Shown here in pieces: positions 32,821-47,836 of a stretch of 61,132 nucleotides of DNA. The first letter of the stretch is position 1; the number at the start of each line of letters is the position of its first letter. The stretch covers positions 1 to 61,132 of the forward strand of contig JAAZND010000102.1 of assembly GCA_012798485.1 (NCBI GenBank). Direction: 5' to 3'. The position numbers were made by a program, and so were the translations under genes. The notes below the pieces were generated by a model. That model had not been told where the DNA came from. It made no database searches and saw only the letters and a list, made by a program, of their open reading frames with translations. This DNA comes from Candidatus Beckwithbacteria bacterium (GTDB taxonomy: Bacteria; Patescibacteriota; Microgenomatia; UBA1400; UBA1449).

Positions 32821-32840
32821 ATAAAATTTAAAAATGTGTC

Positions 32841-32950: not shown

Positions 32951-33925
32951 ATGACAATGCTAAAAACTCTACTTATTACTGGCTGTGCCGGTTTTATTGG
33001 CTCTAGTCTCGTTGAAAAAATTGTTGATGATTATCAAATTATTGGTGTAGATGAATTTAACGATTACTATAATCCACTCTGGAAAGAAGAGAATGTTAAA
33101 AATTTTCTAAACCATCCTCATTTCAAATTATATCGAACCGATATAAGAGATTACCAAATTTTAGAGGAAATTTTTAGGCAAAACAAAATTGACAAAATTA
33201 TCCATCTGGCTGCTCGTGCCGGCGTCAGACCATCTTTAAAAGATCCACTACTTTATGAAGAGGTTAATGTCAAAGGCACCTTAAACCTTTTGGAGTTATC
33301 CAGAAAAAACCAAATTAAACATTTCATTTTTGCTTCAAGTTCCAGTGTTTATGGAAATCAAAACAAAGTGCCTTTTTCTGAAACTGACCCAACTGATCAA
33401 CCAATTTCTCCTTATGCTGCTACTAAAAAAGCTGGAGAGTTATTCTGTCGTCTTTATAATGAAAATTATCAGATTAAAATGACTTGTCTTCGCTTTTTTA
33501 CTGTTTATGGTCCCAAAGGTAGACCTGATATGGCGCCTTATTTATTTACCAAAGCCATTTTAAACGGAGAAGAAATCCAAAAATTTGGAGATGGACAAAC
33601 TCAACGAGACTATACTTATATTGATGATATTATAGAGGGGATTAATAAAGTTATTGAAAAAGAATTCGATTTTGAAATTTTCAATCTTGGCAATAATAAT
33701 CCTGTCAGTCTTAATGATTTTATTAAAAACTTGGAAGAAATAACTGGAAAACAAATGCAGATTAAACAAATGCCAATTCCTGCTGGTGATGTTGTTAAGA
33801 CCTACGCCGATATTGCCAAAGCTAAAAAATTGCTTGGTTGGCAACCACAAACCAACTTTAAAACTGGTTTAGAAAAATTTGTAGCTTGGTACAAAAATAA
33901 TAGATTATTAAATATGTCATCCTGA
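32951..33925 (+). CDS. UDP-glucuronate 4-epimerase-like SDR
   Basis: GCAGFIGS, HLAARAGVRPS, ASSSSVYG, PISPYAATKKAGE, LRFFTVYGPKGRPDMA, QRDYTYIDDI. Confidence 0.75.
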   Translation: MTMLKTLLITGCAGFIGSSLVEKIVDDYQIIGVDEFNDYYNPLWKEENVKNFLNHPHFKLYRTDIRDYQILEEIFRQNKIDKIIHLAARAGVRPSLKDPLLYEEVNVKGTLNLLELSRKNQIKHFIFASSSSVYGNQNKVPFSETDPTDQPISPYAATKKAGELFCRLYNENYQIKMTCLRFFTVYGPKGRPDMAPYLFTKAILNGEEIQKFGDGQTQRDYTYIDDIIEGINKVIEKEFDFEIFNLGNNNPVSLNDFIKNLEEITGKQMQIKQMPIPAGDVVKTYADIAKAKKLLGWQPQTNFKTGLEKFVAWYKNNRLLNMSS

Positions 33926-33945
33926 ATTCATTTCAGGATCTTTCT

Positions 33946-34884
33946 ATGAATCCAAAATTCTGGCAAGACAAAAAAGTTTTAATTACCGGTGGAACTGGTT
34001 TTTTAGGAACTCATTTAGTAAAAAAAATTAAAAAACTTAATCCTGAGAAAATTTATACTCCTTCATCAAAAGATTTAAATTTTATTAAGCTTGCAGATTG
34101 CCAAAAGGCAGTTAAAGATATTGATATCGTTATTCATTTAGCAGCTATTGTCGGCGGCATTGGCTATAACCAAAAAATTCCAGGAAAAATGTTTTATGAC
34201 AATATTATGATGGGTACTCAACTTATGGAAGAAGCCCGAAAAGCCAAAGTTAAAAAATTTGTCTCTATTGGCACTATTTGCGCTTATCCTAAATTTACTC
34301 CTACTCCATTTAAAGAAGAAGATTTATGGAATGGCTATCCGGAAGAAACTAATGCGCCTTATGGTCTTGCCAAAAAAATGCTGCTTGTTCAAGGTCAGGC
34401 ATACAGACAACAATATGATTTTAATGCTATTTACTTACTTTTAGTTAACTTGTACGGCCCAGGTGATAATTTTAATCCAGATTCTTCTCATGTCATTCCC
34501 GCTATGATTAAAAAATTTGTTGAAGCAAAAAGGAATCGAAATAAAAATGTCACACTTTGGGGAACAGGGAAACCAACCAGAGAATTCTTGTATGTGGAAG
34601 ACGCAGCTCAAGGTATTATCTTAGCAACAGAAAAATATAATGAAGGAGAACCTGTCAATCTTGGAAGTAGCTTTGAAATATCTATTAAAAAATTAGCAGA
34701 AACAATCAAAGAAGAAGTTGGTTTTGAAGGCAAAATTATTTGGGATCACACTAAACCAGATGGTCAGCTAAGAAGAAAATTAGATGTAGCAAAAGCTAAA
34801 AAATATTTTAACTTTGAATCTAAAACTGACTTTAAAAAAGGTCTTAAAAAAACTATCGATTGGTATAAAGAAAGCTATCATTAA
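33946..34884 (+). CDS. fcl: GDP-L-fucose synthase-like SDR (GDP-4-keto-6-deoxymannose 3,5-epimerase/4-reductase)
   Basis: HLAAIVGGIGYN, IGTICAYPK, ETNAPYGLAKK, VNLYGPGDNF, SSHVIPAMIKKF. Confidence 0.7.
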   Translation: MNPKFWQDKKVLITGGTGFLGTHLVKKIKKLNPEKIYTPSSKDLNFIKLADCQKAVKDIDIVIHLAAIVGGIGYNQKIPGKMFYDNIMMGTQLMEEARKAKVKKFVSIGTICAYPKFTPTPFKEEDLWNGYPEETNAPYGLAKKMLLVQGQAYRQQYDFNAIYLLLVNLYGPGDNFNPDSSHVIPAMIKKFVEAKRNRNKNVTLWGTGKPTREFLYVEDAAQGIILATEKYNEGEPVNLGSSFEISIKKLAETIKEEVGFEGKIIWDHTKPDGQLRRKLDVAKAKKYFNFESKTDFKKGLKKTIDWYKESYH

Positions 34885-34892
34885 TTCTAATT

Positions 34893-35599
34893 ATGAAACT
34901 ATCTATTTTTATTACAAATATAATTATTGATCTTTTCCATAAATATCAAGAAAATAAAAACAAGAAGAAAACTATTAAAGAAATTTATAGGCTTAAACAT
35001 TATCTGAAAAATAAAGATTCTCTAAAGATTCATTTTGGTTGTGGTCCAAGAATTTTAAAAGATTGGATTAATATTGATTTAAATTATATGGATCATAAAT
35101 ATTATTTTAAAAATTGTAAAGATAAATATTATCCACCAGAAATAAAAGGTAATAAAGATGATTTTTTTGCAATAAATATCACAAAAACTAAGTTTCCCTT
35201 AAAAGATAATTCTGTTGATCTTATCTTTCATGAAGATTTTATTGAACATTTAAATCAAAAGGAACAAGTTATTTTTTTAGCCGAAACTTATAGAATCTTA
35301 AAAAAGGATCTATACATAGAATCAATACGCCAGATTTAATATTTTCCATGAAACAGAATTCATATTTTAAAAAAGGATTTGACGGAGTTTATAAAGAAGA
35401 ATGGGAAAACTATAATCATAAAAATCTATTATCAAAAAAATCATTAGAAGAACTTGCGAAAATAATTGGATATTCTAAAATAATCTTTAACCAAAGAGAT
35501 CAAAGTATTTCTAAACTTATCCCATTAGAATTTCGTCCAGCTCCTGATGATTTTTCCAGAGGAGCAAACGGCAATATTTTTGCTGATTTAATTAAATAA
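34893..35599 (+). pseudogene. Class I SAM methyltransferase with a -1 frameshift in an A6 tract (35300-35305); paralogue of 38497-39153
   Basis: ORFs 34893-35339 and 35348-35599 together align along the whole of ORF 38497-39153. Adding one A to the A6 run restores LKKGSIHRINTPDLIFSMKQNS, matching LKKNHVHRINTPNLLISMKQNS in the paralogue. Confidence 0.65.
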
Positions 35600-35602
35600 A
35601 CT

Positions 35603-36421
35603 ATGTCTCAAACAATTACTATTATCAAACCAAAATCAAAATTAACTCTTCTAGACCTCAAAGAAATTTGGCAATTTAAAGAATTATTCTTTACCTTTGC
35701 CCATAGAGATATCAAACTTAGATATAAACAAACTATCATTGGGGGACTTTGGGCAATAATTCAACCATTAACTACGATGATAATTTTTAGTTTCTTTTTT
35801 GGGAAACTTGCCAAAATCCCTTCTGACGGAGTACCTTATCCTATTTTTTCTTATTCTGGACTTTTATTATGGACTTTTTTTGCCAATGCTATTTCCATGG
35901 CTAGTGTCAGTATGATCAATAGCGCTTCAATTATTACCAAAGTTTATTTTCCACGCCTTATTGTCCCTGTTTCTGCAACTATAGTTTTCTTTATTGATTA
36001 TTTTATTTCTTTTTTTATCTTATTATTCTTAATCTTTTTTTATAAATTCCCCCTGAGAATAGAATTACTTTTACTTCCTTTAATTTTATTTTTCACTTGG
36101 ATTTTAGCTTGTGGGATTGGTTTAATCTTATCTGCTCTTAATGTTAAATACCGCGATGTCAGATACGCCATCCCTTTTTTATTACAGATCTTAATTTATA
36201 TTACACCGGTTATTTATCCAACTTCTGTTTCTGGAAAATTTCAATGGCTCGTTAACCTTAACCCAATGACTGGATATATCGAAGCTCATCGCGCTTTAAT
36301 TCTAGGACTACCATTTAATTATGGAGAGTTATTAATTTCTATTGGATTAACAATGATTATTTTAGTTTGTGGCATTTTCTATTTCAAATCAGTAGAGAAA
36401 AAATTTGCTGACATTATTTAA
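35603..36421 (+). CDS. wzm: ABC-2 type polysaccharide exporter permease (second copy)
   Basis: 272 aa. RYKQTIIGGLWAIIQPL, about six TM segments. Paralogue of 27514-28317. Confidence 0.8.
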   Translation: MSQTITIIKPKSKLTLLDLKEIWQFKELFFTFAHRDIKLRYKQTIIGGLWAIIQPLTTMIIFSFFFGKLAKIPSDGVPYPIFSYSGLLLWTFFANAISMASVSMINSASIITKVYFPRLIVPVSATIVFFIDYFISFFILLFLIFFYKFPLRIELLLLPLILFFTWILACGIGLILSALNVKYRDVRYAIPFLLQILIYITPVIYPTSVSGKFQWLVNLNPMTGYIEAHRALILGLPFNYGELLISIGLTMIILVCGIFYFKSVEKKFADII

Positions 36422-36426
36422 AAAAT

Positions 36427-37425
36427 ATGAAACCAAATACAGCCATTCAAATTACCAATTTAAGTAAAAAATATATTATCTCTCATCATAAAACTGCTTA
36501 TAATACTTTGAGAGATTCCTTTGTTTCTTTCTGGAAAAATTTATTCACTCAGAAAAAAAAAGAAGAATTCCTAGCACTCAAAAATATCAATTTGGAAATT
36601 ACCCAAGGCTCTATTCTTGGTGTGATTGGAAAAAATGGAGCTGGAAAATCAACTCTTTTAAAAATCTTATCCCGTATTGTTGAGCCCACTAATGGTGAAA
36701 TAAAAATAAGGGGAAAAGTAGCTTCACTTCTCGAAGTTGGTACCGGATTTAATCCAGAACTCACAGGAAGAGAAAATATTTATTTAAACGGTTCAATTCT
36801 TGGTATGACTCGCAAAGAAATCAATGCCAAATTTTCTGATATCGTTAAATTTAGCGAAATAGAAAAATTTCTAGACACTCCAGTCAAACGCTATTCTTCT
36901 GGTATGTACGTAAGACTAGCTTTCGCTGTAGCTGCTCATCTTGATAGCGACATTCTTTTGGTGGACGAAGTTTTAGCTGTTGGCGATATTGCTTTCCAAA
37001 AAAAATCTCTCGGCAAAATGAATAAACTAGCTAAAGATGGCAGAACTGTCATTTTTGTCAGTCACAACATGGGAGCGATTCAAGATTTATGTGATCAGTG
37101 TTTGTTTTTAGAGAATGGGGAAATAAAAGCTATAGGAAAAACTGACAAGGTTATCAAACAATATTTGAACAATAAAAAAAATATTAATTTAAATTCTTCT
37201 GATTTTAAAGGTACTTTAAAAGAATTAATAAAAATAAAGGAAATAGTTATCAATGATAATAAAAATAAAGAAGAAGTAATTCTTTCGCCAAAAGAAGAAT
37301 TAGAAATTAAAATTACTTTTAGTATATTTGAAAATTTTGATAAATTTAGACTTACTTTATCAATTTTTCAAAACAGCATAAGAATTTTAACCCTTCATGA
37401 TTGCCTTAATTTTCAAAAAGTATAA
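36427..37425 (+). CDS. wzt: ABC polysaccharide exporter ATPase (second copy) carrying the first part of a C-terminal extension
   Basis: Walker A GKNGAGKST, signature YSSGM, Walker B LLVDE. About 80 aa follow the nucleotide-binding domain before the TAA at 37423-37425. Confidence 0.85.
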   Translation: MKPNTAIQITNLSKKYIISHHKTAYNTLRDSFVSFWKNLFTQKKKEEFLALKNINLEITQGSILGVIGKNGAGKSTLLKILSRIVEPTNGEIKIRGKVASLLEVGTGFNPELTGRENIYLNGSILGMTRKEINAKFSDIVKFSEIEKFLDTPVKRYSSGMYVRLAFAVAAHLDSDILLVDEVLAVGDIAFQKKSLGKMNKLAKDGRTVIFVSHNMGAIQDLCDQCLFLENGEIKAIGKTDKVIKQYLNNKKNINLNSSDFKGTLKELIKIKEIVINDNKNKEEVILSPKEELEIKITFSIFENFDKFRLTLSIFQNSIRILTLHDCLNFQKV

Positions 37426-37650
37426 AAAAATAAAATATATCAATCAACATTTAACATTCCTAAATATTTGTTAAGACCAGGAAGTTATAGTTTAGCCCTT
37501 GGAGGGCATACAGATAATAATATTCATGAGTGGTTCTGGGGAGAAAATCTTGCTTATTTTTCTATTTTAGAGCAATGGTCAGAAGAGTATCCCAAAATCA
37601 ACTTGGGAATAATTAATATAAAGAATATTGCTAAAAGAAAAGAATCATGA
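37426..37650 (+). pseudogene. Detached remainder of the Wzt C-terminal domain, in frame with 36427-37425
   Basis: Same frame as wzt with only the single TAA between them. It reads KNKIYQSTFNIPKYLLRPGSYSLALGGHT..., and its stop overlaps the next ATG (ATGA at 37647-37650). Confidence 0.5.
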
Positions 37651-38504
37651 TCAAAATTATCTTCACTCAAATTATAAAAACCTTAAACAAAGTTTATATA
37701 AAATTATTTGGTATTCAATCTTTATTTAAGTTATTTGACCAGATTAGCACAAACAACAAGTTTAATCCCTTAGTTGGCTATTATAAAAATATCGGAATTC
37801 TTAATTCAGGAAATATTTATCAGACTGGAGAATCGTTTTTTATTGAAAAAATAGTTAATCGATATTTATCAAAAAATAACTTAGTTTTTTTTGATGTTGG
37901 AGCTAATATTGGTGATTATAGTTTATTCCTAAACCAGATTTACCCACAAGCTCAAATTCACGCTTTTGAACCCAATCCTAACGCTTTTAAAAAATTATCT
38001 GAAAAAACTAAAATAGTAAAAAATATTATCGCTAATAATTATGGATTAGGAGAAGAAAAAAAACAAATAAAGCTATATAGCTATAAAAAAATGAAAAATA
38101 CCCAGTTAGGAACTTGTAAAAAAGATATTCTAAACAATTTATTTGATGTTAAAGATCAAATTATAAGTCATAAAATTAATATCCAAACTCTTGATTATTA
38201 TTGTAATGAAAGAAAAATTGAGAAAATTGATTTACTTAAAATTGATGTTGAAGGTTACGAATTAGCCGTTTTAAAAGGTGCGAAAAAAATTTTACCCAAA
38301 ACCAGAATAATTCAATTTGAGTTTAATGAATATAATATTTTTTATAAAATTTTTCTTAAAGATTTCTATGATTTACTCTACCCTCAATTTCAATTATTTC
38401 GTTTAGATCTAAAAAGGCTTATCCCTCTTGGGGGATATCAGACTATCAATGAAATTTTCAAGTTTCAAAATATTATTGCTATCAATCAACCAAAATATGA
38501 TTAA
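37647..38504 (+). CDS. FkbM-family methyltransferase
   Basis: FFDVGANIGDYSLFL, HAFEPNPNAFKKL, LLKIDVEGYELAVLKG. Confidence 0.75.
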   Translation: MIKIIFTQIIKTLNKVYIKLFGIQSLFKLFDQISTNNKFNPLVGYYKNIGILNSGNIYQTGESFFIEKIVNRYLSKNNLVFFDVGANIGDYSLFLNQIYPQAQIHAFEPNPNAFKKLSEKTKIVKNIIANNYGLGEEKKQIKLYSYKKMKNTQLGTCKKDILNNLFDVKDQIISHKINIQTLDYYCNERKIEKIDLLKIDVEGYELAVLKGAKKILPKTRIIQFEFNEYNIFYKIFLKDFYDLLYPQFQLFRLDLKRLIPLGGYQTINEIFKFQNIIAINQPKYD

Positions 38505-39153
38505 TTTCGAAAAAATAATTAATAAAGAAAAAAAAGCAGAGTTAATAAGACTAAAAAAATTCGTCAGCGAACAAAAAGTTGTTAAAATCCAGTTTGGTTG
38601 TGGGCCTAGAATTTTAAAAAAATGGATTAATATTGATTTACATTATTGTCATTATCAGAATTATCTAAAGTATTATACTGATAAATATTATCCTCCTGAA
38701 ATTAGAGGAGACAAAAATGATTTCTTTACTTTTGATATTACCAAAGCCAAACTGCCACTTAAAGATAATTCAGTTGATTTAATTTTTCATGAAGATTTTC
38801 TTGAACATCTCAATCAAAAACAGCAAATTATCTTTCTAGCTGAAACTTATCGCGTGTTAAAAAAAAATCATGTCCACCGAATCAACACCCCAAACTTATT
38901 AATATCTATGAAACAAAATTCACATTTTAAAAAAGGGATTGCTGGTGTTTTTCAAAATGAATGGGACAAAAATCATCACCTTAATGTTTTAACTCCAAAA
39001 ACACTCCAGGAATTGTCTGAACTAATAGGTTATTCACAAATAATCTTTCAAAAAAGAAATCTGAGTGTGTCTAAATTAATTCCTTTAGAATACAGACCTG
39101 ATCCCAAAGATAGACCAGAAAATGGCAATATTTTTGCAGATCTTATCAAATGA
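38497..39153 (+). CDS. Class I SAM methyltransferase (intact paralogue of 34893-35599)
   Basis: QFGCGPRILKKWINIDL, DNSVDLIFHEDFLEHL, YRVLKKN. ATG 38497 overlaps the upstream stop; the track start 38428 is TTG. Confidence 0.65.
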   Translation: MINFEKIINKEKKAELIRLKKFVSEQKVVKIQFGCGPRILKKWINIDLHYCHYQNYLKYYTDKYYPPEIRGDKNDFFTFDITKAKLPLKDNSVDLIFHEDFLEHLNQKQQIIFLAETYRVLKKNHVHRINTPNLLISMKQNSHFKKGIAGVFQNEWDKNHHLNVLTPKTLQELSELIGYSQIIFQKRNLSVSKLIPLEYRPDPKDRPENGNIFADLIK

Positions 39154-40013
39154 AAATTTACATTTTACCAATAAATAAAATCTTTCAGCCAGAAAAAAGC
39201 CAAATTATCTACCCTTCTTATAATCAAGATTACGGAGTTGAACAAGATTTTCTTGCCTTTCTTATCAAAAATTCCCAATTTCTAACAGAAAATCAGAAGC
39301 AAGCAAATTGGCATTATCTGCCAATTTTTTGGACTAGATACTTCTTAAATAATAATTATAGTAAAAATAATCTAGATATCTTAAAAACTGAATGTCAGCA
39401 AAAAATTATCGATGATAAAAAAACTTTTACCATTTGTCAATATGATGATGGTCCATTGGTAGCTTTAGGTAAAACCAGAATCTTTCTCTCAGCTCGAAAA
39501 ACGGAAAAAGGTAATGACATTCCTCTTTTAGCTAAAAAAATTTACCCTCCTTTTCCTTATTATTTCCCCAAAAAATACCTTGCCTCTTTTGTCGGAAGAA
39601 TTAATACTCATCCAATTCGAAAAAAAATGACAGAAAGTATAAAAAATAAAAATATTAAAATAATTGATCAAAATTTAAAATTTTCCAAATATAAAAAAAT
39701 ATTATTACAATCTTATATTTCTCTTTGTCCTAGGGGTTATGGTGGCAATTCTTTCAGATTTTATGAATCTATGCAGCTTGGAGTTGTGCCTTTACTCATT
39801 TCCGATATAGACAATCGACCATTTAAAAATTATATTGGTTGGGATCAGTGTAGTCTTTTTTTTTCAAGCAGTAGGATCGAAAATATTAATCAATTTTTAG
39901 AAAAGCAGGATTTAACAAAAATGATACAAATGGGTAAACAAGCAAAAAAAATATATAAACATAAATTGGAATATCAGAAATGGTGTCAATTATTAATAAA
40001 TGAATTAGAATAA
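39150..40013 (+). CDS. Exostosin-like (GT47-type) glycosyltransferase
   Basis: LASFVGRINTHPIRKKM and CPRGYGGNSFRFYESMQLGVVPLLISD resemble the exostosin C-terminal domain. Confidence 0.45.
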   Translation: MKIYILPINKIFQPEKSQIIYPSYNQDYGVEQDFLAFLIKNSQFLTENQKQANWHYLPIFWTRYFLNNNYSKNNLDILKTECQQKIIDDKKTFTICQYDDGPLVALGKTRIFLSARKTEKGNDIPLLAKKIYPPFPYYFPKKYLASFVGRINTHPIRKKMTESIKNKNIKIIDQNLKFSKYKKILLQSYISLCPRGYGGNSFRFYESMQLGVVPLLISDIDNRPFKNYIGWDQCSLFFSSSRIENINQFLEKQDLTKMIQMGKQAKKIYKHKLEYQKWCQLLINELE

Positions 40014-40017
40014 ACCA

Positions 40018-40839
40018 ATGTCAATTCAAAATATTTCTTTTATTATTCCGGCTTATAACTCAAGCAACACAATTAAAGAGGCAATTGACTCCATTTTAAA
40101 TCAAAATTTTTCTAAAGGTGATGAAATTATTATTGTAAATGATGGATCAATTGATCAAACTAAAAAGATCTTAAACAAACTAAAAAAAATGAATAAATAT
40201 CACAACAATCTTATTATTATTAATCATGATAAAAATTATGGTGGAGGCAAAGCCAGAAATACTGCAGTTAAAAATAGCAAAAATGATTTAATTTTTTGTC
40301 TCGATGCTGATAATATTTTATTACCAAAAACTATCAAACCCTTAAAAAATAAACTATTTAAAGAAAAAACAGATATAGCAGCTTTTGAAAAAATCGATTT
40401 TTTTCTTATTAAAAAATTCTTTAAAATTTTCAAATATAAAAAGATCACTCATCAATGGAAGTTTAAATTTAATAAAAATTATAAATTAAAAGATTATTTT
40501 AATAATAAAATTAATCCTGGATCAAGTGGCAATTATCTTTTTACTAAACAAAGTTGGCAAAAAACTGGAGGTTATCCAGAAGATTCTGGTGCCTTAGATA
40601 CCTGGGGTTTTGGTTTTAGACAAATGGCACATAATTGCCGTTTATGCCTTTTAAGAAATTATTCTTATTTACACCGCTATGGTTATAAATCGTATTGGAT
40701 AAGAGATAGTCAAAACAAAAATTTATCTAAAGAAGCTTTTAAATTTGTAAGGCCTTATCTAAACTTAATTGATGATAAAACTAAAAATCACATCAAAAAA
40801 AATCCCGAAACTTGGTTTAATGATTATTACAAAATTTAA
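40018..40839 (+). CDS. GT2 glycosyltransferase
   Basis: ISFIIPAYNSSNTIKEAIDSILNQ, IIIVNDGSIDQT, CLDADN. Confidence 0.7.
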   Translation: MSIQNISFIIPAYNSSNTIKEAIDSILNQNFSKGDEIIIVNDGSIDQTKKILNKLKKMNKYHNNLIIINHDKNYGGGKARNTAVKNSKNDLIFCLDADNILLPKTIKPLKNKLFKEKTDIAAFEKIDFFLIKKFFKIFKYKKITHQWKFKFNKNYKLKDYFNNKINPGSSGNYLFTKQSWQKTGGYPEDSGALDTWGFGFRQMAHNCRLCLLRNYSYLHRYGYKSYWIRDSQNKNLSKEAFKFVRPYLNLIDDKTKNHIKKNPETWFNDYYKI

Positions 40840-40843
40840 AAAT

Positions 40844-41575
40844 ATGAAGCTAAAACAAATAATTTACTACTTGATTTTTATGTTTAGAAATTGGTTTTTA
40901 TATCTATTTAATTTTTATCGCTTTAATAAATTAAACAATCATCGTTTTAGTTTAAAATGGAGTGATCGCTATCCCTGCATTAAAGATGCAACTGCCAATA
41001 CTAATTTTGACCGGCATTATGTTTACCACACAGCTTGGGCTATAAGGAAACTTAAAGAGATAAAACCTAAAAAACATATTGATATTGCTTCATCTTTATA
41101 CTTCCCAGCACTGGCTTCTGCTTTTATTCCGATAGAATTTTATGATTACCGTCCAGCAAAAATAGAACTGTCTGGTCTTAAATCCAAAAAAGGTGATTTG
41201 CTAAATTTACCCTTTAAGAATGAATCAGTTGAATCCTTATCTTGTATGCATACGATTGAACACGTCGGGCTTGGCAGATATGGAGATAAACTTGATCCAG
41301 ATGGAGATCTCAAAGCAATTGCTGAACTTAAAAGAGTTATTGAAAAAAACGGAAGTCTTCTTTTTGTCGTTCCCATTGGTAAAAAAGCTAAAATTATGTA
41401 TAACGCTCATAGGATTTACACTGTTAAACAAATTAAAAGTTATTTTACTGATTTAAAGCTAAAAGAGTTTTGTCTTATTTCCGAAGATCCAAAATTAGGA
41501 ATAATCAAAAATCCAGATAAAAAACTGCTCAAAAAGCAAACGTATGCTTGCGGCTGTTTTTGGTTTGTCAAATGA
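40844..41575 (+). CDS. Class I methyltransferase-like protein (resembles the DUF268 type)
   Basis: LSCMHTIEHVGLGRYGDKLDPDGD, NGSLLFVVPIG. ATG 40844 lies 5 nt after the upstream stop. Confidence 0.45.
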   Translation: MKLKQIIYYLIFMFRNWFLYLFNFYRFNKLNNHRFSLKWSDRYPCIKDATANTNFDRHYVYHTAWAIRKLKEIKPKKHIDIASSLYFPALASAFIPIEFYDYRPAKIELSGLKSKKGDLLNLPFKNESVESLSCMHTIEHVGLGRYGDKLDPDGDLKAIAELKRVIEKNGSLLFVVPIGKKAKIMYNAHRIYTVKQIKSYFTDLKLKEFCLISEDPKLGIIKNPDKKLLKKQTYACGCFWFVK

Positions 41576-42453
41576 AAACTAAATTAAATAAAAAATTTCA
41601 AGATAAATTATGCTGCCCCATTTGTCTGTCAAATTTAGAATATAAAAGTAATTTTAGTTGTCCAAACTGCGGTGCTAAATTTTTTCAAAAAAATAATATT
41701 TGGGATTTTCGTCTCAATCCTCCAAAATGTGCTTATAGTTTGGATAGAAAATTTTGGCAACATGGACAAGAGAATTACGAATATTTTTCTCAAAAATGGA
41801 GATCTCAGGATAACTTTGATAATTATCTAAGTGAACTAAGAGGAGTCAGAGAAATATATGAAGAAGTTTTTAAACTTGAAGGAGAAATACTTGATATTGG
41901 AGGTAATTGTGGAACCTTAAGATATTTTCTAAAAAAAAAAGAAAAATATCTTAGCGTTGATCCTTATTTAAATGCTTTCGAAAATCTTGGTCCAAATTAT
42001 AAGAAAGTCTATCCATGTTTAAACGAATCTTGCAATTTTTTAACTTGTTTCGGCGAATTTCTACCTTTCAAAAATAAAAGTTTTGACTGGATTCATCTTC
42101 GTTCAGTCTTGGATCACTTTTTTGACCCATATTTAGTGATGAAACAAAGTTACAGAGTTTTAAAAAATAATGGCAAAGTTCTTATTGGTATCAATACCAA
42201 TGCTAAACCAGTTTTAAAAATAGACGAAGTGAGTTTAAATAAAAAAGAACAAGTTCAGGCTATAGGTAAATTTTTTATTAATTTTTTAAAACCTATTGCA
42301 ACTGTTAAATTTGCAATCAAAGATCATCATACTTTTTCTTGGTCATTAGATGATCTCAAAATTTTAATCAAAAGCACTGGTTTTAAAATTGAAAAAATTC
42401 ATTGGCAAAAAAGTAATCCCAGTTGCGCCTATATTAGTTTAATAAAAGGATAA
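41572..42453 (+). CDS. SAM methyltransferase with an N-terminal Trm112-like zinc ribbon
   Basis: CCPICLSNLEY...CPNCGAKF, then ILDIGGNCGTL and LKNNGKVLI. ATGA overlap with the upstream gene. Confidence 0.65.
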   Translation: MKTKLNKKFQDKLCCPICLSNLEYKSNFSCPNCGAKFFQKNNIWDFRLNPPKCAYSLDRKFWQHGQENYEYFSQKWRSQDNFDNYLSELRGVREIYEEVFKLEGEILDIGGNCGTLRYFLKKKEKYLSVDPYLNAFENLGPNYKKVYPCLNESCNFLTCFGEFLPFKNKSFDWIHLRSVLDHFFDPYLVMKQSYRVLKNNGKVLIGINTNAKPVLKIDEVSLNKKEQVQAIGKFFINFLKPIATVKFAIKDHHTFSWSLDDLKILIKSTGFKIEKIHWQKSNPSCAYISLIKG

Positions 42454-42456
42454 TTT

Positions 42457-43161
42457 ATGACAATAATAAAAGACAAAAACTCATATACAAGAAATCAATG
42501 GCTAAAAAAAACTTTAGCTAAAATCCCAAAAAACCACAAAATTCTTGATGCAGGAGCAGGGCAATTACAGTTTAAAAAATATTGTAAACACTTAAAATAT
42601 ACTTCTCAGGATTTTGGAGAATATGATGGTAAAGGCGATAATAAAGGACTACAAACAAAAACTTGGGATAATTCCAAAATTGATATTAAATCAGATATTA
42701 TTAAAATTCCTGTTCAAGATAAGTCTTTTGACGTCATTATGTGCACCGAAGTTTTGGAACATTTACCAGAACCTATAAAAGCCATAAAAGAATTTTCTAG
42801 AATTTTAAAATCAAATGGAAAATTAATTATCACAGCTCCTTTTTGCTCTCTTACACATTTTACTCCATATTATTTTTATAATGGTTTTAGTAAATATTGG
42901 TATGAAAAAATTTTACCCCAAAATGGTTTTATTATAGAAGAAGTTTCTTTTAATGGAAATTTTTTTGATTATCTTTCTCAAGAAATATGTAGAATTCCCT
43001 ATATGGCCTCAAAATACAGTAAAATCAATATAATTCAAAATATTTTTTATAGATTAGTTAATTTTATTTTGCTTAAAATACTTAATAATTTATCAAAAAA
43101 TAGTAAAAATTCTGAAGAAATGCTTTGCTTTGGTTTACATATTTTAGCAACTAAAAAATAA
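42457..43161 (+). CDS. Class I SAM methyltransferase
   Basis: ILDAGAGQLQF, FDVIMCTEVLEHLPEP, LKSNGKLIITAP. Confidence 0.7.
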   Translation: MTIIKDKNSYTRNQWLKKTLAKIPKNHKILDAGAGQLQFKKYCKHLKYTSQDFGEYDGKGDNKGLQTKTWDNSKIDIKSDIIKIPVQDKSFDVIMCTEVLEHLPEPIKAIKEFSRILKSNGKLIITAPFCSLTHFTPYYFYNGFSKYWYEKILPQNGFIIEEVSFNGNFFDYLSQEICRIPYMASKYSKINIIQNIFYRLVNFILLKILNNLSKNSKNSEEMLCFGLHILATKK

Positions 43162-43167
43162 ATATTT

Positions 43168-44055
43168 ATGATTATTTCAAAACTTTCCGGCGGATTAGGT
43201 AATCAAATGTTTCAATATGCAGCTGGTAGAGCTTTGGCTAAAAGGCTTAAAACTGATTTTAAAATCGATAATAATTTCTATAAACATCAACCCGTAAATA
43301 TCACCCATAGAAAATATGAACTAGAGTGTTTCAAGCTTAAAGCTGAAATCGCCAGTGATCAAGAAATTAGAAAGCTTAATTATTTTCATTTTAAAAATCA
43401 AAACAGATTGCTAAATGTTCTTCATTACCATCTCGCTCCGGTTTTTGAAAAAAATTATCTACAGGAAAAAAATCCTCACAATTTAGACGAAAAATTTTTT
43501 AAAACAAAAAAGAAAAATTTATATTTACAAGGATCTTGGCAAAGTGAAAAATATTTCAAAAATATTGAAAACATAATTCGTAAAGATTTTGATTTTAAAA
43601 ATAAAGTAAATCAGCATGCTAATAAAATTTTAAATAAAATAAAAAGTACTAATTCGATCTCTTTGCACGTTAGAAGAACTGATTATATTAGCAATACAAA
43701 CACTAATAAAATTCACGGAGTCTGTTCTATTGAATATTATAAACAGGCAATAAATCTAATTATTAAAGAAACTAAAGATCCTATTTTTTTTATTTTCTCT
43801 GATGATATTTCTTGGTGTAAACAAAATTTGCAATTAAATTACTCTCATTTTTATATTGAAAACAATAAGAATTGGGAAGATTTAAAACTAATGTCAAACT
43901 GTAAACATAATATTATTGCCAACAGCTCTTTTAGTTGGTGGGGAGCGTGGCTTAATCAAAATAAAGAAAAAATTATTTATGCACCCCAAAAATGGTTCAA
44001 TCTTGATAAATTAGATATAAAAGATAGAATTCCGGAAAAATGGTATTTAATATGA
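43168..44055 (+). CDS. GT11 alpha-1,2-fucosyltransferase-like glycosyltransferase
   Basis: GGLGNQMFQYAAGRALAKRL N-terminus, SLHVRRTDY, ANSSFSWWGAWLN. Confidence 0.8.
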   Translation: MIISKLSGGLGNQMFQYAAGRALAKRLKTDFKIDNNFYKHQPVNITHRKYELECFKLKAEIASDQEIRKLNYFHFKNQNRLLNVLHYHLAPVFEKNYLQEKNPHNLDEKFFKTKKKNLYLQGSWQSEKYFKNIENIIRKDFDFKNKVNQHANKILNKIKSTNSISLHVRRTDYISNTNTNKIHGVCSIEYYKQAINLIIKETKDPIFFIFSDDISWCKQNLQLNYSHFYIENNKNWEDLKLMSNCKHNIIANSSFSWWGAWLNQNKEKIIYAPQKWFNLDKLDIKDRIPEKWYLI

Positions 44056-45332
44056 AAATCAAACCAAAAAATATTTATCTTAAACTCAAAGAAATCATAA
44101 TCAAAAAAAAGCTTGTTGATCTTGAAAAAAGCCAATACTGGACCATAAATGAACTTAAGAACTTTCAAAATGAAAGACTAAAAAAAATTATTAATTATGC
44201 TTATAAAAATATTAAAGGCTATAGAGATAAATTTAATCAAGTTAAAATAAAACCTAATGACATCAATTCAAGTAATGATTTATACAAGATTCCAATTCTA
44301 ACTAGAGAAGAAATTCAAGAAAATCCAGCTTTTATTAATCCGAAATTAATACATACAACTTTGTATACTGGTGGATCTACAGGAAAATCTTTGATTTATT
44401 ATGATGATCAACAAGCTGGTATTATGAGATGGAATTGCCATTATCGAGGTTGGAAATATCAAGGATATAATGTTTCCAAAAAACTGGCAGTTATTTCTGC
44501 TGCCAAAAAAATATCAATTAATCATAAAATCTTAACTTTAAACGGACAACTCGAAGATAAATATCTTAGGCAAAATATAGAAGCTATAGTTAAATTTAGG
44601 CCTGAATTTTTACGAGGCTACGTAGGTTCAATCTATATCTTGGGAAAATATATCTTAGAAAAAAATATTAAAATTGATTTTATTAAAGCTATTGATCCAG
44701 TCTCTGAAAATTTATATGAGTATCAAAAAAAAATTATGCAAAAAGCTTTTAACGCTCCGGTTTTTGAAGAATACTGTTGTAATGACGGAGGTGCATGTGC
44801 TTGGGAATGTGAAAAACACCAAGGTCTTCACTGGGCCATGGAAAGAGCTATTATTGAAGAAAAAAATGGAGAAATGATCACAACGGACCTTTGGAATAAA
44901 GCTATGCCATTTATTAGATATAAAAATGGAGACAAAGTCAAATTTTTAAAAAACAAATGCTGCTGTGGCAGAACTTTACCATTGATAAAAGTGAAAGGCA
45001 GAGACAATGATATCATTATAGCTCCAAAAGGACCGATTGGAGCCACTTTTCTTATGTATCATGGAATTGGTTATGGAGATAAAAATTCATTTAGAACAGG
45101 AATTAGAATAGTTCAATATGTTCAAGAAAAAAATTATCAACTCAATGTCAATATTGTTAAAAGTGCCAATTGTACTCAAAAACAAATAGATGGATTTAAA
45201 AAAGCTGTCAAAACAACTTGCCATCAAATGAAAATTAAATTTAATTTTATTAAAGACATTAAAGGCACTAAAATAGGCAAAAGACAATTTATTATAAATA
45301 ATGACCATAAATTACTTGAAAAATGGAAATAA
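44052..45332 (+). CDS. Adenylate-forming enzyme of the PaaK/CapK (phenylacetate-CoA ligase-like) family
   Basis: About 426 aa. P-loop-like YTGGSTGKS, with overall length and layout as in CapK-type proteins. ATGA overlap with the GT11 stop. Confidence 0.55.
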   Translation: MKIKPKNIYLKLKEIIIKKKLVDLEKSQYWTINELKNFQNERLKKIINYAYKNIKGYRDKFNQVKIKPNDINSSNDLYKIPILTREEIQENPAFINPKLIHTTLYTGGSTGKSLIYYDDQQAGIMRWNCHYRGWKYQGYNVSKKLAVISAAKKISINHKILTLNGQLEDKYLRQNIEAIVKFRPEFLRGYVGSIYILGKYILEKNIKIDFIKAIDPVSENLYEYQKKIMQKAFNAPVFEEYCCNDGGACAWECEKHQGLHWAMERAIIEEKNGEMITTDLWNKAMPFIRYKNGDKVKFLKNKCCCGRTLPLIKVKGRDNDIIIAPKGPIGATFLMYHGIGYGDKNSFRTGIRIVQYVQEKNYQLNVNIVKSANCTQKQIDGFKKAVKTTCHQMKIKFNFIKDIKGTKIGKRQFIINNDHKLLEKWK

Positions 45333-45333
45333 T

Positions 45334-46263
45334 ATGAATCCAGTAGTTTCTGTAATCATGCCGGTTTTCAATGCAGAAAAATATCTTAAAAAAGCTATTG
45401 AAAGCATTCTGTCTCAAACTTTTACTGATTTTGAATTTATTATTATCAATGATGGATCTAGTGATAACAGCGAAAAAATAATCAAATCATATCCAGATAA
45501 AAGAATCAGATATTTCAAAAACAAAAAAAATCAAAATTTAGCTAGATGTTTAAATTTTGCAATTAAAAAAGCTAAAGGCAGATATATTGCCCGTATGGAT
45601 GCTGATGATATTTCCTATAAAAACAGATTTAAAAAACAATATCAATTTCTACAGCAAAATAGTCAAATTAACATCTGTGGGACATTTGCAGATATTATTA
45701 ATGAAAAAGGGCAAATCATTAAAAATTTTAAAAAACCGACTCAGGATAATGAAATTAAACTAAGTTTATTTTTCGGAAATCAACTTATTCATTCTTCTGT
45801 CTTTGTCAGAAAAGAAATTTTTGAGAAATATCAATATAATCCTAATTTAAAAAAGGGTCAAGATTACGAACTTTGGGTACGATTAGCTTTTGCTAAAAAT
45901 ATTTATTTTGCAAATCTTGACGAAAACTTACTTAAATATAGGCTTTATTATACTCAAAAAAGAATTGCTGATTTAAAATATTATGACAAGGTTTATAAAC
46001 TAAATTTTGAAAAATTTATGAATAATTATAATATTTCTTATCAAAAAAATGATTTTAAGGTTTATCTAAATTTCTTAAAAAATCAAGCAAGTATTTTCCA
46101 AATTTTTAATTTGGCTCACTTAAGCAAAAAAATAATCAGTTCAAAAAATTTTACAGAAAAATACAAAAATATTGATACCGTAAAGTTCTTTTCCCAAAAA
46201 CTCGGAAGATATAATTTTTTCTTAGAAAAATTATTATATTTATATTTGAATCAACTAAGATGA
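45334..46263 (+). CDS. GT2 glycosyltransferase
   Basis: VSVIMPVFNAEKYLKKAIESILSQTF, IIINDGSSDNS, RMDADD. Confidence 0.75.
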   Translation: MNPVVSVIMPVFNAEKYLKKAIESILSQTFTDFEFIIINDGSSDNSEKIIKSYPDKRIRYFKNKKNQNLARCLNFAIKKAKGRYIARMDADDISYKNRFKKQYQFLQQNSQINICGTFADIINEKGQIIKNFKKPTQDNEIKLSLFFGNQLIHSSVFVRKEIFEKYQYNPNLKKGQDYELWVRLAFAKNIYFANLDENLLKYRLYYTQKRIADLKYYDKVYKLNFEKFMNNYNISYQKNDFKVYLNFLKNQASIFQIFNLAHLSKKIISSKNFTEKYKNIDTVKFFSQKLGRYNFFLEKLLYLYLNQLR

Positions 46264-46937
46264 TTAAAAAAATAACTATAAATAATTTCAAACATTTTCT
46301 TTTTCCCTTTGAAAAACAATCATATGCGCTGGAAGGCGAGGATCTTCTTCTAGAATATATTTTTACAGGTCAAAATCAAGGTTTTTACATTGATGTTGGA
46401 GCTCATCATCCGAAAAGATTTTCCAATACTTTTTTGTTTTATCAAAAAGGCTGGCATGGTATAAATATCGATGCTACGCCCAAAAGCATGAATCTATTTA
46501 AAAAAATTCGACCTAGAGATATTAACCTAGAAACAGCTATCTCTGATAAAAAAGAAAGGCTTGATTTTTATATTTTTAATGAGCCAGCTCTTAATACTTT
46601 TGACCATAAAAAAGCAGAAGAATATGAGAGAAAAAAAGACTATTTTATTGAAAAAATAATTAAAATGAAAACTCAAACGCTTGAAAAAATTTTAGATGAA
46701 TATTTAAAAAATCAAAAAATAGATTTTCTTACTATCGATGTTGAAGGTTTTGATTTTAAAGTTTTAAAATCTTTAAACCTTAAAAAATATCAACCGAAAA
46801 TAATTCTCATTGAATCATCTGACCAAGATATCGAAAAGGCTCTAAATTCCAGCATTGCCGAATATCTAAAAAAATTTAATTACAGCTTTTATCTCAAAAC
46901 CTTTAACACTTTATTTTTTAAAAATAATTTTTTATGA
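46260..46937 (+). CDS. FkbM-family methyltransferase
   Basis: FYIDVGAHHPKRFSNT, GWHGINIDATP, FLTIDVEGFDFKVLKS. Confidence 0.7.
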   Translation: MIKKITINNFKHFLFPFEKQSYALEGEDLLLEYIFTGQNQGFYIDVGAHHPKRFSNTFLFYQKGWHGINIDATPKSMNLFKKIRPRDINLETAISDKKERLDFYIFNEPALNTFDHKKAEEYERKKDYFIEKIIKMKTQTLEKILDEYLKNQKIDFLTIDVEGFDFKVLKSLNLKKYQPKIILIESSDQDIEKALNSSIAEYLKKFNYSFYLKTFNTLFFKNNFL

Positions 46938-47836
46938 ATCTAGCGCCTATTATTCTTTTTGTCTATAACCGACCACAGCACGCTTTAAAAACACTAGAAA
47001 TGCTACAAAAAAATGATTTAGCTTCTCAAAGCGAGCTTTTTATTTTTGCTGATGGCGCCAAAAATCAAAATGATGATCAGAAAATACGAGAAGTCAGAAA
47101 AATAATTAGAAAAGCAAAAGATTTTAAAAAGATCAAAATCACTGAGCAAAATCAGAATCTTGGTCTAAAAAATTCCATTATTAAAGGTGTCGCAGAAATT
47201 ATCAAAAAATCAAAAAAGGTTATCGTTTTGGAAGATGACATTCTTACTTCTCCTTATTTCTTAAACTATATGAATCAGGCTCTTGAATTTTATGAAAACG
47301 ATAAAAAAATAGCCATGATTGGCGCTTGGTCGCCAAAAAATAAAAATCTTAATCAAGATATTTATCTTACTCAACGAGCTTGCTCATGGGGTTGGGCTAC
47401 ATGGATCGATCGATTTATTCAAATCGACTGGGAAATAAAAAACATTACTAAATTTTTCAAAAATCAAAAGCTACAAAAACAATTCAATCAAAGAGGTTAT
47501 AATCTAACTGATATTCTCAAAAAACAAAGTGAGGGCAAAATCGATACTTGGGATATTTATTGGGATTTCTGGCAATTTAAAAGGCAAGCTTTTTGTCTCA
47601 GACCAAAACATTCGCTAGTAAAAAATATTGGCACTGATGGGACTGGCACACATTACAAAAATAAGACAGAATATCAAATTATTTTTGATAAAAATTTTAA
47701 ACCGAAATTAACTCAATTAAATTTTAACCCTAAATTTGATCAATTATTTCAAAACAGTTTAGATAAGAGAAATTATCTTTACTATCTTGTCAAAATTAAA
47801 AATAAAATTTATGAATATTTTACAAATCAACACTAA
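46934..47836 (+). CDS. GT-A fold glycosyltransferase resembling the GNT-I (GT13) type
   Basis: APIILFVYNRPQH, ELFIFADG, VIVLEDDILTSPYFLNYM and IGAWSP follow the order of GNT-I landmarks. Confidence 0.4.
   Translation: MNLAPIILFVYNRPQHALKTLEMLQKNDLASQSELFIFADGAKNQNDDQKIREVRKIIRKAKDFKKIKITEQNQNLGLKNSIIKGVAEIIKKSKKVIVLEDDILTSPYFLNYMNQALEFYENDKKIAMIGAWSPKNKNLNQDIYLTQRACSWGWATWIDRFIQIDWEIKNITKFFKNQKLQKQFNQRGYNLTDILKKQSEGKIDTWDIYWDFWQFKRQAFCLRPKHSLVKNIGTDGTGTHYKNKTEYQIIFDKNFKPKLTQLNFNPKFDQLFQNSLDKRNYLYYLVKIKNKIYEYFTNQH

Follow-up and report, generated by a model that had tools for sequence, protein, structure and literature searches.

The O-antigen of Rhizobium etli CE3, a diderm bacterium with LPS, is specified by the wre genes and contains 2-O-methylfucose, 3-O-methyl-6-deoxytalose and a tri-O-methylfucose cap. 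In ABC-dependent systems such as E. coli O8/O9a and Klebsiella pneumoniae O3/O5/O7 (wzm-wzt-wbdD), the export signal is a terminal cap, for example a methyl or methyl-phosphate group, that is read by the carbohydrate-binding module of Wzt (PMC11231755, PMC3482155). The ABC-exported rhamnan of Pseudomonas aeruginosa involves small stand-alone methyltransferases, at least one of which is required for polymer production (PMC3560663). The locus described here resembles each of these systems in part. With the wzm-wzt-wbdD loci it shares an ABC-2 permease, an ATPase that has a Wzt_C-type domain at its C-terminus, the placement of a methyltransferase gene immediately 3' of wzt and, presumably, cytoplasmic assembly by several glycosyltransferases. 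However, neither a WbdD-type kinase domain nor a long coiled-coil 'ruler' protein is present at the locus; its methyltransferases are small, stand-alone and of other families (FkbM, MTb family, DUF268), six of them are intact compared to one in the WbdD systems, the host is probably devoid of LPS and the Wzt domain is broken by a stop codon. The P. aeruginosa common polysaccharide antigen cluster (pa5455-pa5459) likewise is Wzm/Wzt-dependent and has stand-alone class I methyltransferases, lacking WbdD-like extra domains, that adjoin glycosyltransferases, but there are only two of them, the polymer is a rhamnan homopolymer, and GT11, GT47 and DUF268 genes are missing. The likeness to R. etli is one of description and not of compared sequences: an ABC-exported, fucose-containing glycan with several O-methyl groups and several dedicated methyltransferases. 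Unlike R. etli, our host is probably not a diderm with LPS, and to our knowledge GT47, DUF268 and MTb families do not occur in the wre locus.

The window, i.e. the whole stretch of 61,132 nt that was analysed, stems from a low-GC sludge bacterium. For a GT2/DUF2304 pair located at the contig end, the best matches with a name come from Patescibacteria and Beckwithbacteria (63-67% identity), and the host probably belongs to the Patescibacteria. A tight operon of co-directional genes, all on the (+) strand, spans positions 31843-49941. It opens with a UDP-glucuronate decarboxylase (UDP-xylose synthase) gene (31843-32820; Pfam Epimerase and GDP_Man_Dehyd), the product of which matches structures of human UXS1 (4gll/2b69) with 345 bits (E 4e-102); judged by this match it is a bona fide UDP-xylose synthase, and the glycan probably contains xylose. 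The first-pass annotation had made no mention of xylose or uronic acid as inputs. The following SDR nucleotide-sugar 4-epimerase (32951-33925; Epimerase, 198 bits) has among its PDB matches 6zl6 ('epimerase domain-containing protein', 183.6 bits), which we take to be the UDP-GlcA 4-epimerase of Bacillus cereus; the enzyme is thus possibly a UDP-glucuronate 4-epimerase. The third gene (33946-34884) codes for an SDR whose top NCBIfam match is the GDP-L-fucose synthase model NF047922, with 271 bits at a model cut-off of 500 bits, and which is 72% identical to the protein encoded at the same place, before wzm, in locus L032. Genes for Gmd and Ugd, required upstream of Fcl and UXS, are absent within the window. 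Since a GT11 gene (123.7 bits) accompanies this Fcl-like gene, a fucose-type sugar is likely in the product, as the first-pass annotation had proposed. Wzm (35603-36421; ABC2_membrane, 65.4 bits; 50-58% identity to Wzm of related loci) and Wzt (36427-37650; ABC_tran, 83 bits) follow. The co-directional arrangement with tight junctions was confirmed, the latter ranging from -8 to +8 nt between the Fcl-like and the PaaK-like gene. The same island holds a second, short Wzm/Wzt (27514-29038) and a Wzx-type flippase (30488-31747), and a further methyltransferase remnant of 116 aa is located at 57568-57918.

Seven methyltransferase genes had been proposed, and indeed, out of 14 consecutive ORFs, seven match methyltransferase HMMs above the Pfam gathering score, many more than would be expected on a genome-wide basis; none of those proposed failed, but only six are intact genes and one is a pseudogene. 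They fall into six families, two being FkbM and five class I proteins (one also DUF268), and are not recent duplicates of each other. The pseudogene, MTa (34893-35599), is a member of the MTb family and is frameshifted, as had been noted: the first piece (34893-35339; Methyltransf_11, 30.6 bits) breaks at an A6 tract (35300-35305), the C-terminal half runs on in another frame (35312-35599), and relative to the intact paralogue MTb the two parts show 66% and 62% identity. FkbM1 (37647-38504) scores 82.7 bits against PF05050 (FkbM/Methyltransf_21) and 108.9 bits against TIGR01444. MTb itself (38497-39153; Methyltransf_11, 31.2 bits) represents a highly conserved, uncharacterised class I family with orthologues of 55-69% identity across bacterial phyla and archaea; its AF2 model (pLDDT 90.8) shows a class I SAM-methyltransferase fold. 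After an exostosin-like GT47 gene (39150-40013; Exostosin_GT47, 65.9 bits) and GT2a (40018-40839; Glycos_transf_2, 109.9 bits) comes the DUF268-like class I methyltransferase (40844-41575; PF03269, 56.1 bits; Methyltransf_11, 22.7 bits). It has the conserved motifs EHxGLGRYGD and NAHR and a degenerate glycine loop (D-I-A-S-S), and its confident AF2 model (pLDDT 90.1) adopts the class I fold, its PDB matches being SAM methyltransferases, among them AtmM and RebM, which O-methylate sugars. For the next class I enzyme (41572-42453; Methyltransf_11, 39.7 bits; Methyltransf_23, 36.1 bits) a Trm112-like zinc ribbon had been suggested; a Cys4 zinc-ribbon-like motif is present at the N-terminus, but this region matches no Trm112 model and other zinc-ribbon matches are weak and non-significant. 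MTc (42457-43161; Methyltransf_11, 51.9 bits) lies upstream of the GT11 fucosyltransferase-family gene (43168-44055; Glyco_transf_11). The latter is followed by a PaaK/F390-synthetase-type adenylate-forming enzyme (44052-45332), which has no Pfam match and only sub-cut-off NCBIfam matches (DVU1553-family AMP-dependent ligase, 89 bits; PaaK, 78 bits), by GT2b (45301-46263; Glycos_transf_2, 126.2 bits) and by FkbM2 (46260-46937; PF05050, 91.8 bits), which is only 28% identical to FkbM1. Pfam and NCBIfam profiles thus bear out the FkbM, DUF268, GT2, exostosin-like, GT11 and adenylating-enzyme labels of the first-pass annotation and the interleaving of these genes. The operon ends with a GNT-I-like gene (46934-47836; GNT-I, 26.8 bits), GT4 (47787-49058; Glycos_transf_1, 76.8 bits) and GT2c (49024-49941; Glycos_transf_2, 52.7 bits).

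Much of this arrangement recurs elsewhere. The core of the order [Fcl]-Wzm-Wzt (with carbohydrate-binding domain)-[FkbM]-MTb-GT47-GT2-DUF268 methyltransferase-[MTc]-GT11 was found in no fewer than 15 public loci, with proteins 40-72% identical to those encoded here. They come from Saccharibacteria (L021, L018, L017, L015), Nomurabacteria (L028, L012), Paceibacteria (L029), a gammaproteobacterial MAG (L014), Spirochaetes (Spirochaetota; L011), Anaerolineae (Chloroflexota; L009), Bacteroidota, including the cultured Mucilaginibacter antarcticus (L026) and Pedobacter yonginense (L036), and the archaea Methanolobus (L007) and Altiarchaeales (L003/L004). Wzt is encoded just upstream of the MTb orthologue in 13 of the 27 loci with enough upstream flank; directly downstream, 15 of the 38 loci with enough flank have GT47 and five have a GNT-I-like glycosyltransferase. 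In L011, L014, L018 and L021 an FkbM1 orthologue (43-49% identity) is the only gene that separates Wzt from MTb, and MTc orthologues (58-59% identity) occupy the same slot between DUF268 and GT11 in L014 and L021. In some relatives the domains, verified by Pfam, are fused: FkbM to MTb (L009), GT2(a) to DUF268 (L012, L017), GT2 to MTb (L032) and MTb to MTc (L030), and L033 encodes a protein of 2201 aa with Methyltransf_24, GT2 and three Methyltransf_11 stretches. Both these fusions, of one methyltransferase with another or with GT2, and the conserved gene order with glycosyltransferases tie the methyltransferases to glycan assembly, which agrees with the function first assumed for them.

We consider it likely that the region is the working core of a Wzm/Wzt ABC-dependent surface-glycan operon, a variant of this cassette, that makes a multiply O-methylated chain. 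Several glycosyltransferases, each matched with its own SAM-dependent O-methyltransferase, would work on the cytoplasmic side of the membrane and use GDP-fucose, UDP-xylose and possibly also UDP-galacturonate to build a polyprenol-linked glycan. The pairs that we infer, like the sugars and the sites of methylation, would be FkbM1 and MTb with GT47, the DUF268-like enzyme with GT2a, and MTc with GT11. One methyltransferase per glycosyltransferase would give a product with several different O-methyl groups, and the finished chain would leave through Wzm/Wzt. Since Wzt carries a Wzt_C-type domain, the reading of a cap is a reasonable hypothesis, and recognition of a putative methyl cap by Wzt is plausible; FkbM1 and MTb, encoded directly 3' of wzt, would be the best candidates for methylating the non-reducing end recognised by its C-terminal domain. 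Points against this reading are the degenerate glycine loop of the DUF268-like enzyme, the absence of Gmd and Ugd from the window, the lack of a WbdD-type kinase domain and ruler, the differing types of Wzt C-domain, the three genes that have no conserved partner elsewhere (zinc-ribbon methyltransferase, FkbM2, PaaK-like enzyme) and the lesions in Wzt and MTa.

The methyltransferases could also serve the cap only. Most of them would then per-O-methylate one terminal sugar, the internal residues would stay undecorated and Wzt would have no export signal other than the cap. There is a precedent in the 2,3,4-tri-O-methylfucose end of the R. etli CE3 O-antigen, and Ojeda and colleagues reportedly attributed this cap in 2010 to a small gene group with several predicted methyltransferases and one glycosyltransferase. 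The GT11 and Fcl-like genes, the Wzt_C-type domain and the position of FkbM1 and MTb next to wzt, together with their fusion in L009, would fit. However, the methyltransferase genes are scattered among glycosyltransferase genes, which agrees better with one enzyme per glycosyltransferase than with several on one residue, and in relatives GT2a is joined to DUF268 and other GT2 modules are joined to MTb. Moreover, loci that share FkbM and MTb have at least two unrelated sequence types of Wzt C-domains, so that a single conserved cap does not fit; we therefore regard a function limited to the cap as unlikely. Still less probable are non-glycan substrates for some of the enzymes, namely the zinc-ribbon methyltransferase, FkbM2 and perhaps MTc, whose substrate might be the lipid carrier, a protein, or an acyl or amino-acid group that the PaaK-like enzyme has activated. 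The presence of the adenylating enzyme in the operon is consistent with this idea; BLASTP (E<=1e-8) found no counterpart of it in the other glycan loci compared, and neither it nor the zinc-ribbon methyltransferase nor FkbM2 has a conserved partner there. The zinc-ribbon enzyme is also the least conserved of the set (four relatives found, at most 38% identity), and the class I fold, with top PDB matches of the MTb and DUF268-like models at a TM-score of ~0.5, is uninformative on the substrate. Yet the L033 megaprotein contains, between its MTb-like and MTc-like domains, one that shares 29% identity with the zinc-ribbon methyltransferase, MTc adjoins GT11 in two other loci, and FkbM2 overlaps GT2b on one side and the GNT-I-like gene on the other, each time by 4 nt.

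The integrity of the operon in the source strain is a further point. The extended Wzt that had been described does have a Wzt_C-type carbohydrate-binding domain (29.6 bits, residues 268-381, with the stop read as X), but the domain is cut by an in-frame TAA (37423-37425). Read-through by an alternative code is unlikely because TAA is the normal stop, ending 42 of the 59 ORFs. Given this stop and the frameshift in MTa, the site of which has the identical sequence in a contig from a different study, the glycan pathway may be impaired in the source strain. It is doubtful, in our view, that the whole operon is an inactive remnant, the glycan being no longer exported and the short Wzm/Wzt or the Wzx-type flippase having taken over, even though these and the methyltransferase remnant are at hand in the same window. 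The 74 codons beyond the TAA are still open, encode a sequence 33-44% identical to the C-termini of intact Wzt proteins of 398-421 aa and finish with an ATGA shared with the following gene, so that the stop is a recent lesion or an assembly error; no independent contig covering position 37423 was found. The remaining 18 ORFs of the run are intact and either overlap or lie close together, and MTa is an extra copy of the MTb family whose loss need not matter.

The first-pass annotation had placed the methyltransferase density well beyond that of other glycan loci, a view that did not hold. Across 35 related glycan loci, each 15 kb or longer, the best count in 12 kb has a median of two and a maximum of eight. 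Eight Pfam-confirmed methyltransferases are encoded in 11.5 kb in the Saccharibacteria locus L021, and the Patescibacteria locus L002 has seven, together with four radical-SAM genes, within 20.7 kb; compared to these loci the density is equal or lower here, and it is high but not unique. The Patescibacteria loci L001/L002, L021 and L023, all from public MAGs, share the MTb family, FkbM, DUF268, MTc, GT11 and GNT-I-like genes with our locus. L001/L002 have radical-SAM/B12 enzymes and CmcI-type methyltransferases in addition, whereas the PaaK-like enzyme, the zinc-ribbon methyltransferase and the broken second MTb copy are extras of the present locus.

On the preferred reading, the operon most likely makes an ABC-exported polymer that bears several O-methyl groups and contains fucose and probably xylose. 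Patescibacteria are not known to have LPS; therefore 'O-antigen' is probably the wrong word for such a host and 'surface glycan' fits better. The cassette, of which the locus represents a single variant, is widespread and horizontally shared among many bacteria and some archaea.

Twenty consecutive ORFs on the + strand (31843-49941) make up the operon, and all seven of those that the first-pass annotation had regarded as methyltransferase-like (7/7) exceed the Pfam gathering score in methyltransferase families. Assignment of each to an HMM family gave two FkbM proteins and five members of Methyltransf_11 (gathering score 21.2), one of the five belonging also to DUF268 (gathering score 25). FkbM1 (37647-38504) matches PF05050 with 82.7 bits and TIGR01444 with 108.9 bits, and FkbM2 (46260-46937) with 91.8 and 45.2 bits, respectively. 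Methyltransf_11 is matched by the ORF at 34893-35339, the first part of MTa (30.6 bits), by MTb (38497-39153; 31.2 bits), the zinc-ribbon methyltransferase (41572-42453; 39.7 bits), MTc (42457-43161; 51.9 bits) and the DUF268-like protein (40844-41575; 22.7 bits, with 56.1 bits to DUF268), all on the + strand. NCBIfam backs both FkbM assignments and offers no specific name for the remaining methyltransferase ORFs; an exact-sequence search with FkbM1 matched no record. Inspection of the SAM-binding motifs agreed in six of the seven ORFs, where motif I is canonical, but not in the DUF268-like protein, where it is degenerate (DIASS). The SAM loop of the FkbM proteins is of the DVGAxxG type (FFDVGANIGDYS in FkbM1, YIDVGAHHP in FkbM2), and the class I motif I reads FGCGPR in MTa and MTb, DIGGNCG in the zinc-ribbon methyltransferase and DAGAGQ in MTc.

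The genes said to be interleaved with the methyltransferases were all found: GT47/exostosin (39150-40013), GT2a (40018-40839), GT11 (43168-44055), a PaaK/F390-type adenylating enzyme (44052-45332) and GT2b (45301-46263), followed distally to the methyltransferase run by a GNT-I-like gene, a GT4 and a GT2. The GT11 product reaches 123.7 bits against Glyco_transf_11 (gathering score 23.9), a score that bears on the family and not on donor or linkage. Junctions are as tight as described (overlaps or gaps of 10 nt or less), ranging from -8 to +8 nt between the Fcl-like gene and the PaaK-like gene. The Wzm (35603-36421; ABC2_membrane, 65.4 bits) and Wzt (36427-37650; ABC_tran, 83 bits) genes lie side by side, and their best NCBIfam matches are teichoic-acid and galactan Wzm/Wzt exporters. 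Neither tRNAs nor Rfam elements were matched within the window, which has a GC content of 28%.

The window's methyltransferases fall into six families, with MTa and MTb as the only like pair (62-66% identity); FkbM1 and FkbM2 share 28% identity, and the remaining pairs show no significant similarity. The run therefore did not arise by recent tandem duplication. AlphaFold predicts a class I SAM-methyltransferase fold for both MTb (pLDDT 90.8) and the DUF268-like protein (pLDDT 90.1). A fold search of the PDB with these models returned generic class I methyltransferases with a best TM-score of only about 0.5, among them, for the DUF268-like protein, the sugar O-methyltransferases AtmM and RebM (TM-score about 0.5); a PDB search with the two sequences gave marginal matches only and no real relative. 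The DUF268 match covers profile positions 66-127 of 176 only, and the orthologues in a Saccharibacteria (L021) and a Nomurabacteria locus (L012) match positions 68-141; EHxGLGRYGD and NAHR motifs are strongly conserved in this protein. The Trm112-like zinc ribbon that had been ascribed to the ORF at 41572 is present as a Cys4 CxxC...CxxC motif, but no Trm112 model matches it, and the first 70 residues give weak generic zinc-ribbon matches (best zf-Mss51, 18.9 bits against a gathering score of 27).

To place the run in a wider context we scanned GTDB genomes with an alignment of the MTb family, which returned 52 loci, the window's own genome not among them, and compared the 20 proteins of the operon by BLASTP with all ORFs of these loci. 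Relatives of MTb number in the hundreds at 55-69% identity and occur in Patescibacteria, Bacteroidota, Spirochaetes, Chloroflexota and archaea, the same range of identity extending from Patescibacteria to Asgard, methanogen and Altiarchaeales archaea. A common gene order recurs, Wzm-Wzt-(FkbM)-MTb-GT47-GT2a-DUF268-(MTc)-GT11, with optional genes in brackets and protein identities of 40-72%, and it is often continued by GT2b and a GNT-I-like gene. Among the public loci compared (L numbers), this order is seen in Saccharibacteria (L015, L017, L018, L021), Nomurabacteria (L012, L028), Paceibacteria (L029) and another Patescibacteria MAG (L032), a gammaproteobacterial MAG (L014), Spirochaetes (L011), Anaerolineae (L009), Bacteroidota (L016, L019, L043) including the cultured Mucilaginibacter antarcticus KCTC 52232 (L026) and Pedobacter yonginense KCTC 22721 (L036), and the archaea Methanolobus (L007) and Altiarchaeales (L003/L004). 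Wzt lies just upstream of MTb in 13 of the 27 orthologue loci with enough upstream sequence, and FkbM stands between the two in 5; directly after MTb there is GT47 in 15 and a GNT-I-like glycosyltransferase in 5 of the 38 loci with enough downstream sequence. Judged by gene order and protein identity, the methyltransferase run is a copy of a conserved cassette shared across phyla and domains rather than a one-off.

Gene fusions give the strongest indication that the methyltransferases take part in glycan assembly, each presumably with a particular glycosyltransferase. Pfam-verified cases comprise FkbM with MTb (L009, Anaerolineae), GT2 with DUF268 (L012, Nomurabacteria; L017, Saccharibacteria), GT2 with MTb (L032, Patescibacteria; in L029, Paceibacteria, by BLAST only) and MTb with MTc (L030, Planctomycetota). 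A protein of 2201 aa in the planctomycetal locus L033 joins Methyltransf_24, GT2 and three Methyltransf_11 stretches, as verified with Pfam, and BLAST reveals MTb-like, zinc-ribbon-methyltransferase-like and MTc-like domains in it. Giant proteins of 2201, 2324 and 1547 aa are encoded in these Planctomycetota and Pirellulales loci (L033, 7010-13615 and 13633-20604; L030, 1610-8559), and in them GT2 domains alternate with or adjoin several methyltransferase domains that have MTb, MTc and the zinc-ribbon methyltransferase as relatives.

The earlier proposal of a methylated glycan product is borne out as far as a role in glycan assembly is concerned, through the fusions and the cassette order, but not in the claim that the methyltransferase density lies well beyond that of other glycan loci. 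Using profiles built from the window's own methyltransferases, we counted methyltransferase ORFs per 12 kb in 35 related loci that are 15 kb or longer; DUF268 members were taken from phmmer-level matches only, the iterative profile having drifted into GT2 via the GT2-DUF268 fusions and been dropped. The window has 7, whereas the median of the related loci is 2 and their highest count, from Saccharibacteria locus L021, is 8 in 11.5 kb, all Pfam-confirmed. The Patescibacteria locus L002 carries seven methyltransferases and four radical-SAM genes, labelled by Pfam, in 20.7 kb. In density the window thus ranks among the highest of its family without exceeding known loci. The literature searched yielded nothing on R. 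etli wre genes, nor on glycan loci rich in methyltransferases in the candidate phyla radiation. In L002 and a second Patescibacteria locus, L001, the glycosyltransferase genes are accompanied by a CmcI-type methyltransferase and by four or five radical-SAM enzymes, of which some have B12-binding or SPASM domains, an indication that this kind of glycan also undergoes C-methylation or other radical chemistry.

Two genes of the operon carry lesions. The frameshift noted in the ORF at 34893 is real: the second half of MTa resumes in another frame at 35312-35599, the break falls on an A6 tract (35300-35305), and its first and second pieces share 66% and 62% identity, respectively, with the intact gene at 38497. 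MTa is a pseudogene. The frameshift is not an error private to one assembly, because a contig from a different sludge study is identical in sequence across the break. The Wzt had been described as extended; in this assembly its frame is cut by an in-frame TAA (37423-37425), after which 74 codons stay open and run into the next gene with an ATGA overlap. Wzt_C is recognisable only with the TAA read as X, and it is then matched over residues 268-381 with 29.6 bits, the gathering score being 30.4. Both halves of the C-terminus are homologous to intact Wzt C-termini, the post-stop piece with 33-44% identity to those of intact proteins of 398-421 aa, and the encoded protein ends mid-domain. No public contig matched a 231-nt stretch around the TAA, and over a wider stretch none spans 37367-37541 to give independent coverage of this codon. 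An alternative genetic code was ruled out and recoding of this codon is unlikely, since TAA is the usual stop in the window (42 of 59 ORFs, with TGA in 13). Directly before the start codon of FkbM1, position 37644 shows A>G in run X1 at low depth (2.7), a sign of strain variation in the population. Taken together, the MTa frameshift and the Wzt stop suggest that this copy of the operon may be impaired.

The sugars can be approached from the first genes of the run. The first (31843-32820) encodes a UDP-xylose synthase (345 bits to human UXS1) and the second (32951-33925) a 4-epimerase, possibly for UDP-glucuronate; the third (33946-34884) is Fcl-like, with NF047922 as best match at 271 bits against a cut-off of 500. 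Neither Gmd nor Ugd was found within the window, where a dehydratase of the CDP-glucose 4,6-dehydratase type lies at 5462-6589. Ugd and UXS sit between MTb and GT47 in the Altiarchaeales loci, a gene order that hints at UDP-xylose or a uronic acid as donor of GT47. The 61-kb contig, which matches sludge metagenome runs, is wholly a glycan island; besides many glycosyltransferases it holds another methyltransferase, a Wzx-type flippase and a second, short Wzm/Wzt. In the stretch 27514-31747, this second Wzm/Wzt, whose short ATPase of 245 aa lacks the binding domain, is accompanied by the Wzx/Polysacc_synt flippase and by a protein of 476 aa that Pfam does not match; the island thus holds several export routes. 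A separate operon on the - strand contains an intact class I methyltransferase (21378-22268; Methyltransf_11, 53 bits), and a 116-aa ORF outside the operon (57568-57918), consisting of the class I core alone (Methyltransf_11, 48 bits) and devoid of the N-terminal part, looks like the remnant of a further methyltransferase gene. The contig end (58452-61130, - strand) encodes a GT2 and a small membrane protein of the DUF2304 type (83.8 bits), along with an SDR epimerase and a multi-pass membrane protein that is truncated; the best named relatives of the GT2/DUF2304 pair are in Patescibacteria and Beckwithbacteria. This group served as the best taxonomic hint, and with the low GC content and the many best matches in Patescibacteria it makes a Patescibacteria host probable.

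The best-supported reading of the predicted gene products is an ABC-exported heteroglycan that contains fucose and probably xylose and bears O-methylated residues. Residues would be O-methylated by methyltransferases paired with glycosyltransferases, FkbM1 and MTb with GT47, the DUF268-like protein with GT2a and MTc with GT11, and the heteroglycan would leave by the Wzm/Wzt route. Patescibacteria, to which the host probably belongs, are not known to have LPS, so the term 'O-antigen' is probably a misnomer here. In ABC-exported polymers, O-methyl sugars can serve as chain-stop and export signal. The carbohydrate-binding module of Wzt reads the terminal cap in characterised systems (PMC11231755, PMC3482155), and in E. 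coli O9a wbdD follows directly after wzt, the position that FkbM1 and MTb occupy in the window. By this analogy a methylated cap read by Wzt is plausible. A simple equivalence with WbdD is weighed against by several features. WbdD has a kinase domain and a coiled-coil ruler, whereas the window's methyltransferases have neither: no kinase match was obtained in any methyltransferase ORF with Pfam or NCBIfam, the longest of these ORFs is at most 293 aa, and a check for a coiled-coil spacer in the MTb model showed a single predicted N-terminal helix (residues 4-24). Moreover, at least two sequence types of Wzt C-domain occur among loci with the same methyltransferases, and the small stand-alone enzymes of the window are closer to those of the P. 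aeruginosa CPA system (PMC3560663) than to WbdD. In an Altiarchaeales locus (L004, 165-4701), a Wzt with Wzt_C is followed by an unknown protein of 523 aa, a Methyltransf_12 protein and, encoded separately, a protein-kinase-like protein of 240 aa, an arrangement that could be a split WbdD-like kinase and methyltransferase terminator in an archaeal MAG.

The operon is a predicted locus for a methylated ABC-dependent glycan and, more specifically, a member of a conserved but unstudied cassette. O-methyl sugars alter the recognition of surface glycans by phages, predators, lectins and immune systems. A wider reading, which we regard as rather unlikely, is that the MTb and bacterial DUF268-like families are dedicated glycan O-methyltransferases and that exchangeable glycosyltransferase and methyltransferase modules move between bacteria and archaea in one mobile ABC-export cassette. 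The nematode glycan O-methyltransferases are, to our knowledge, still unidentified. DUF268 was defined on Caenorhabditis proteins in nematode 'glycoclusters' (PMC7614267), and if the wider reading is true, the GT2-DUF268 fusions would offer a first clue to the function of a family that is a candidate for these enzymes. Both MTb and the DUF268-like proteins are key enzymes of the cassette and belong to families without a characterised or structurally solved member. The presence of the cassette in cultured Pedobacter and Mucilaginibacter makes its product and the specificity of each methyltransferase accessible by ordinary genetics and carbohydrate chemistry, and results from these carriers would be transferable to the uncultured Patescibacteria and archaea. 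The locus is valuable mainly for drawing attention to glycan methyltransferase families that are uncharacterised and open to testing in cultured carriers.
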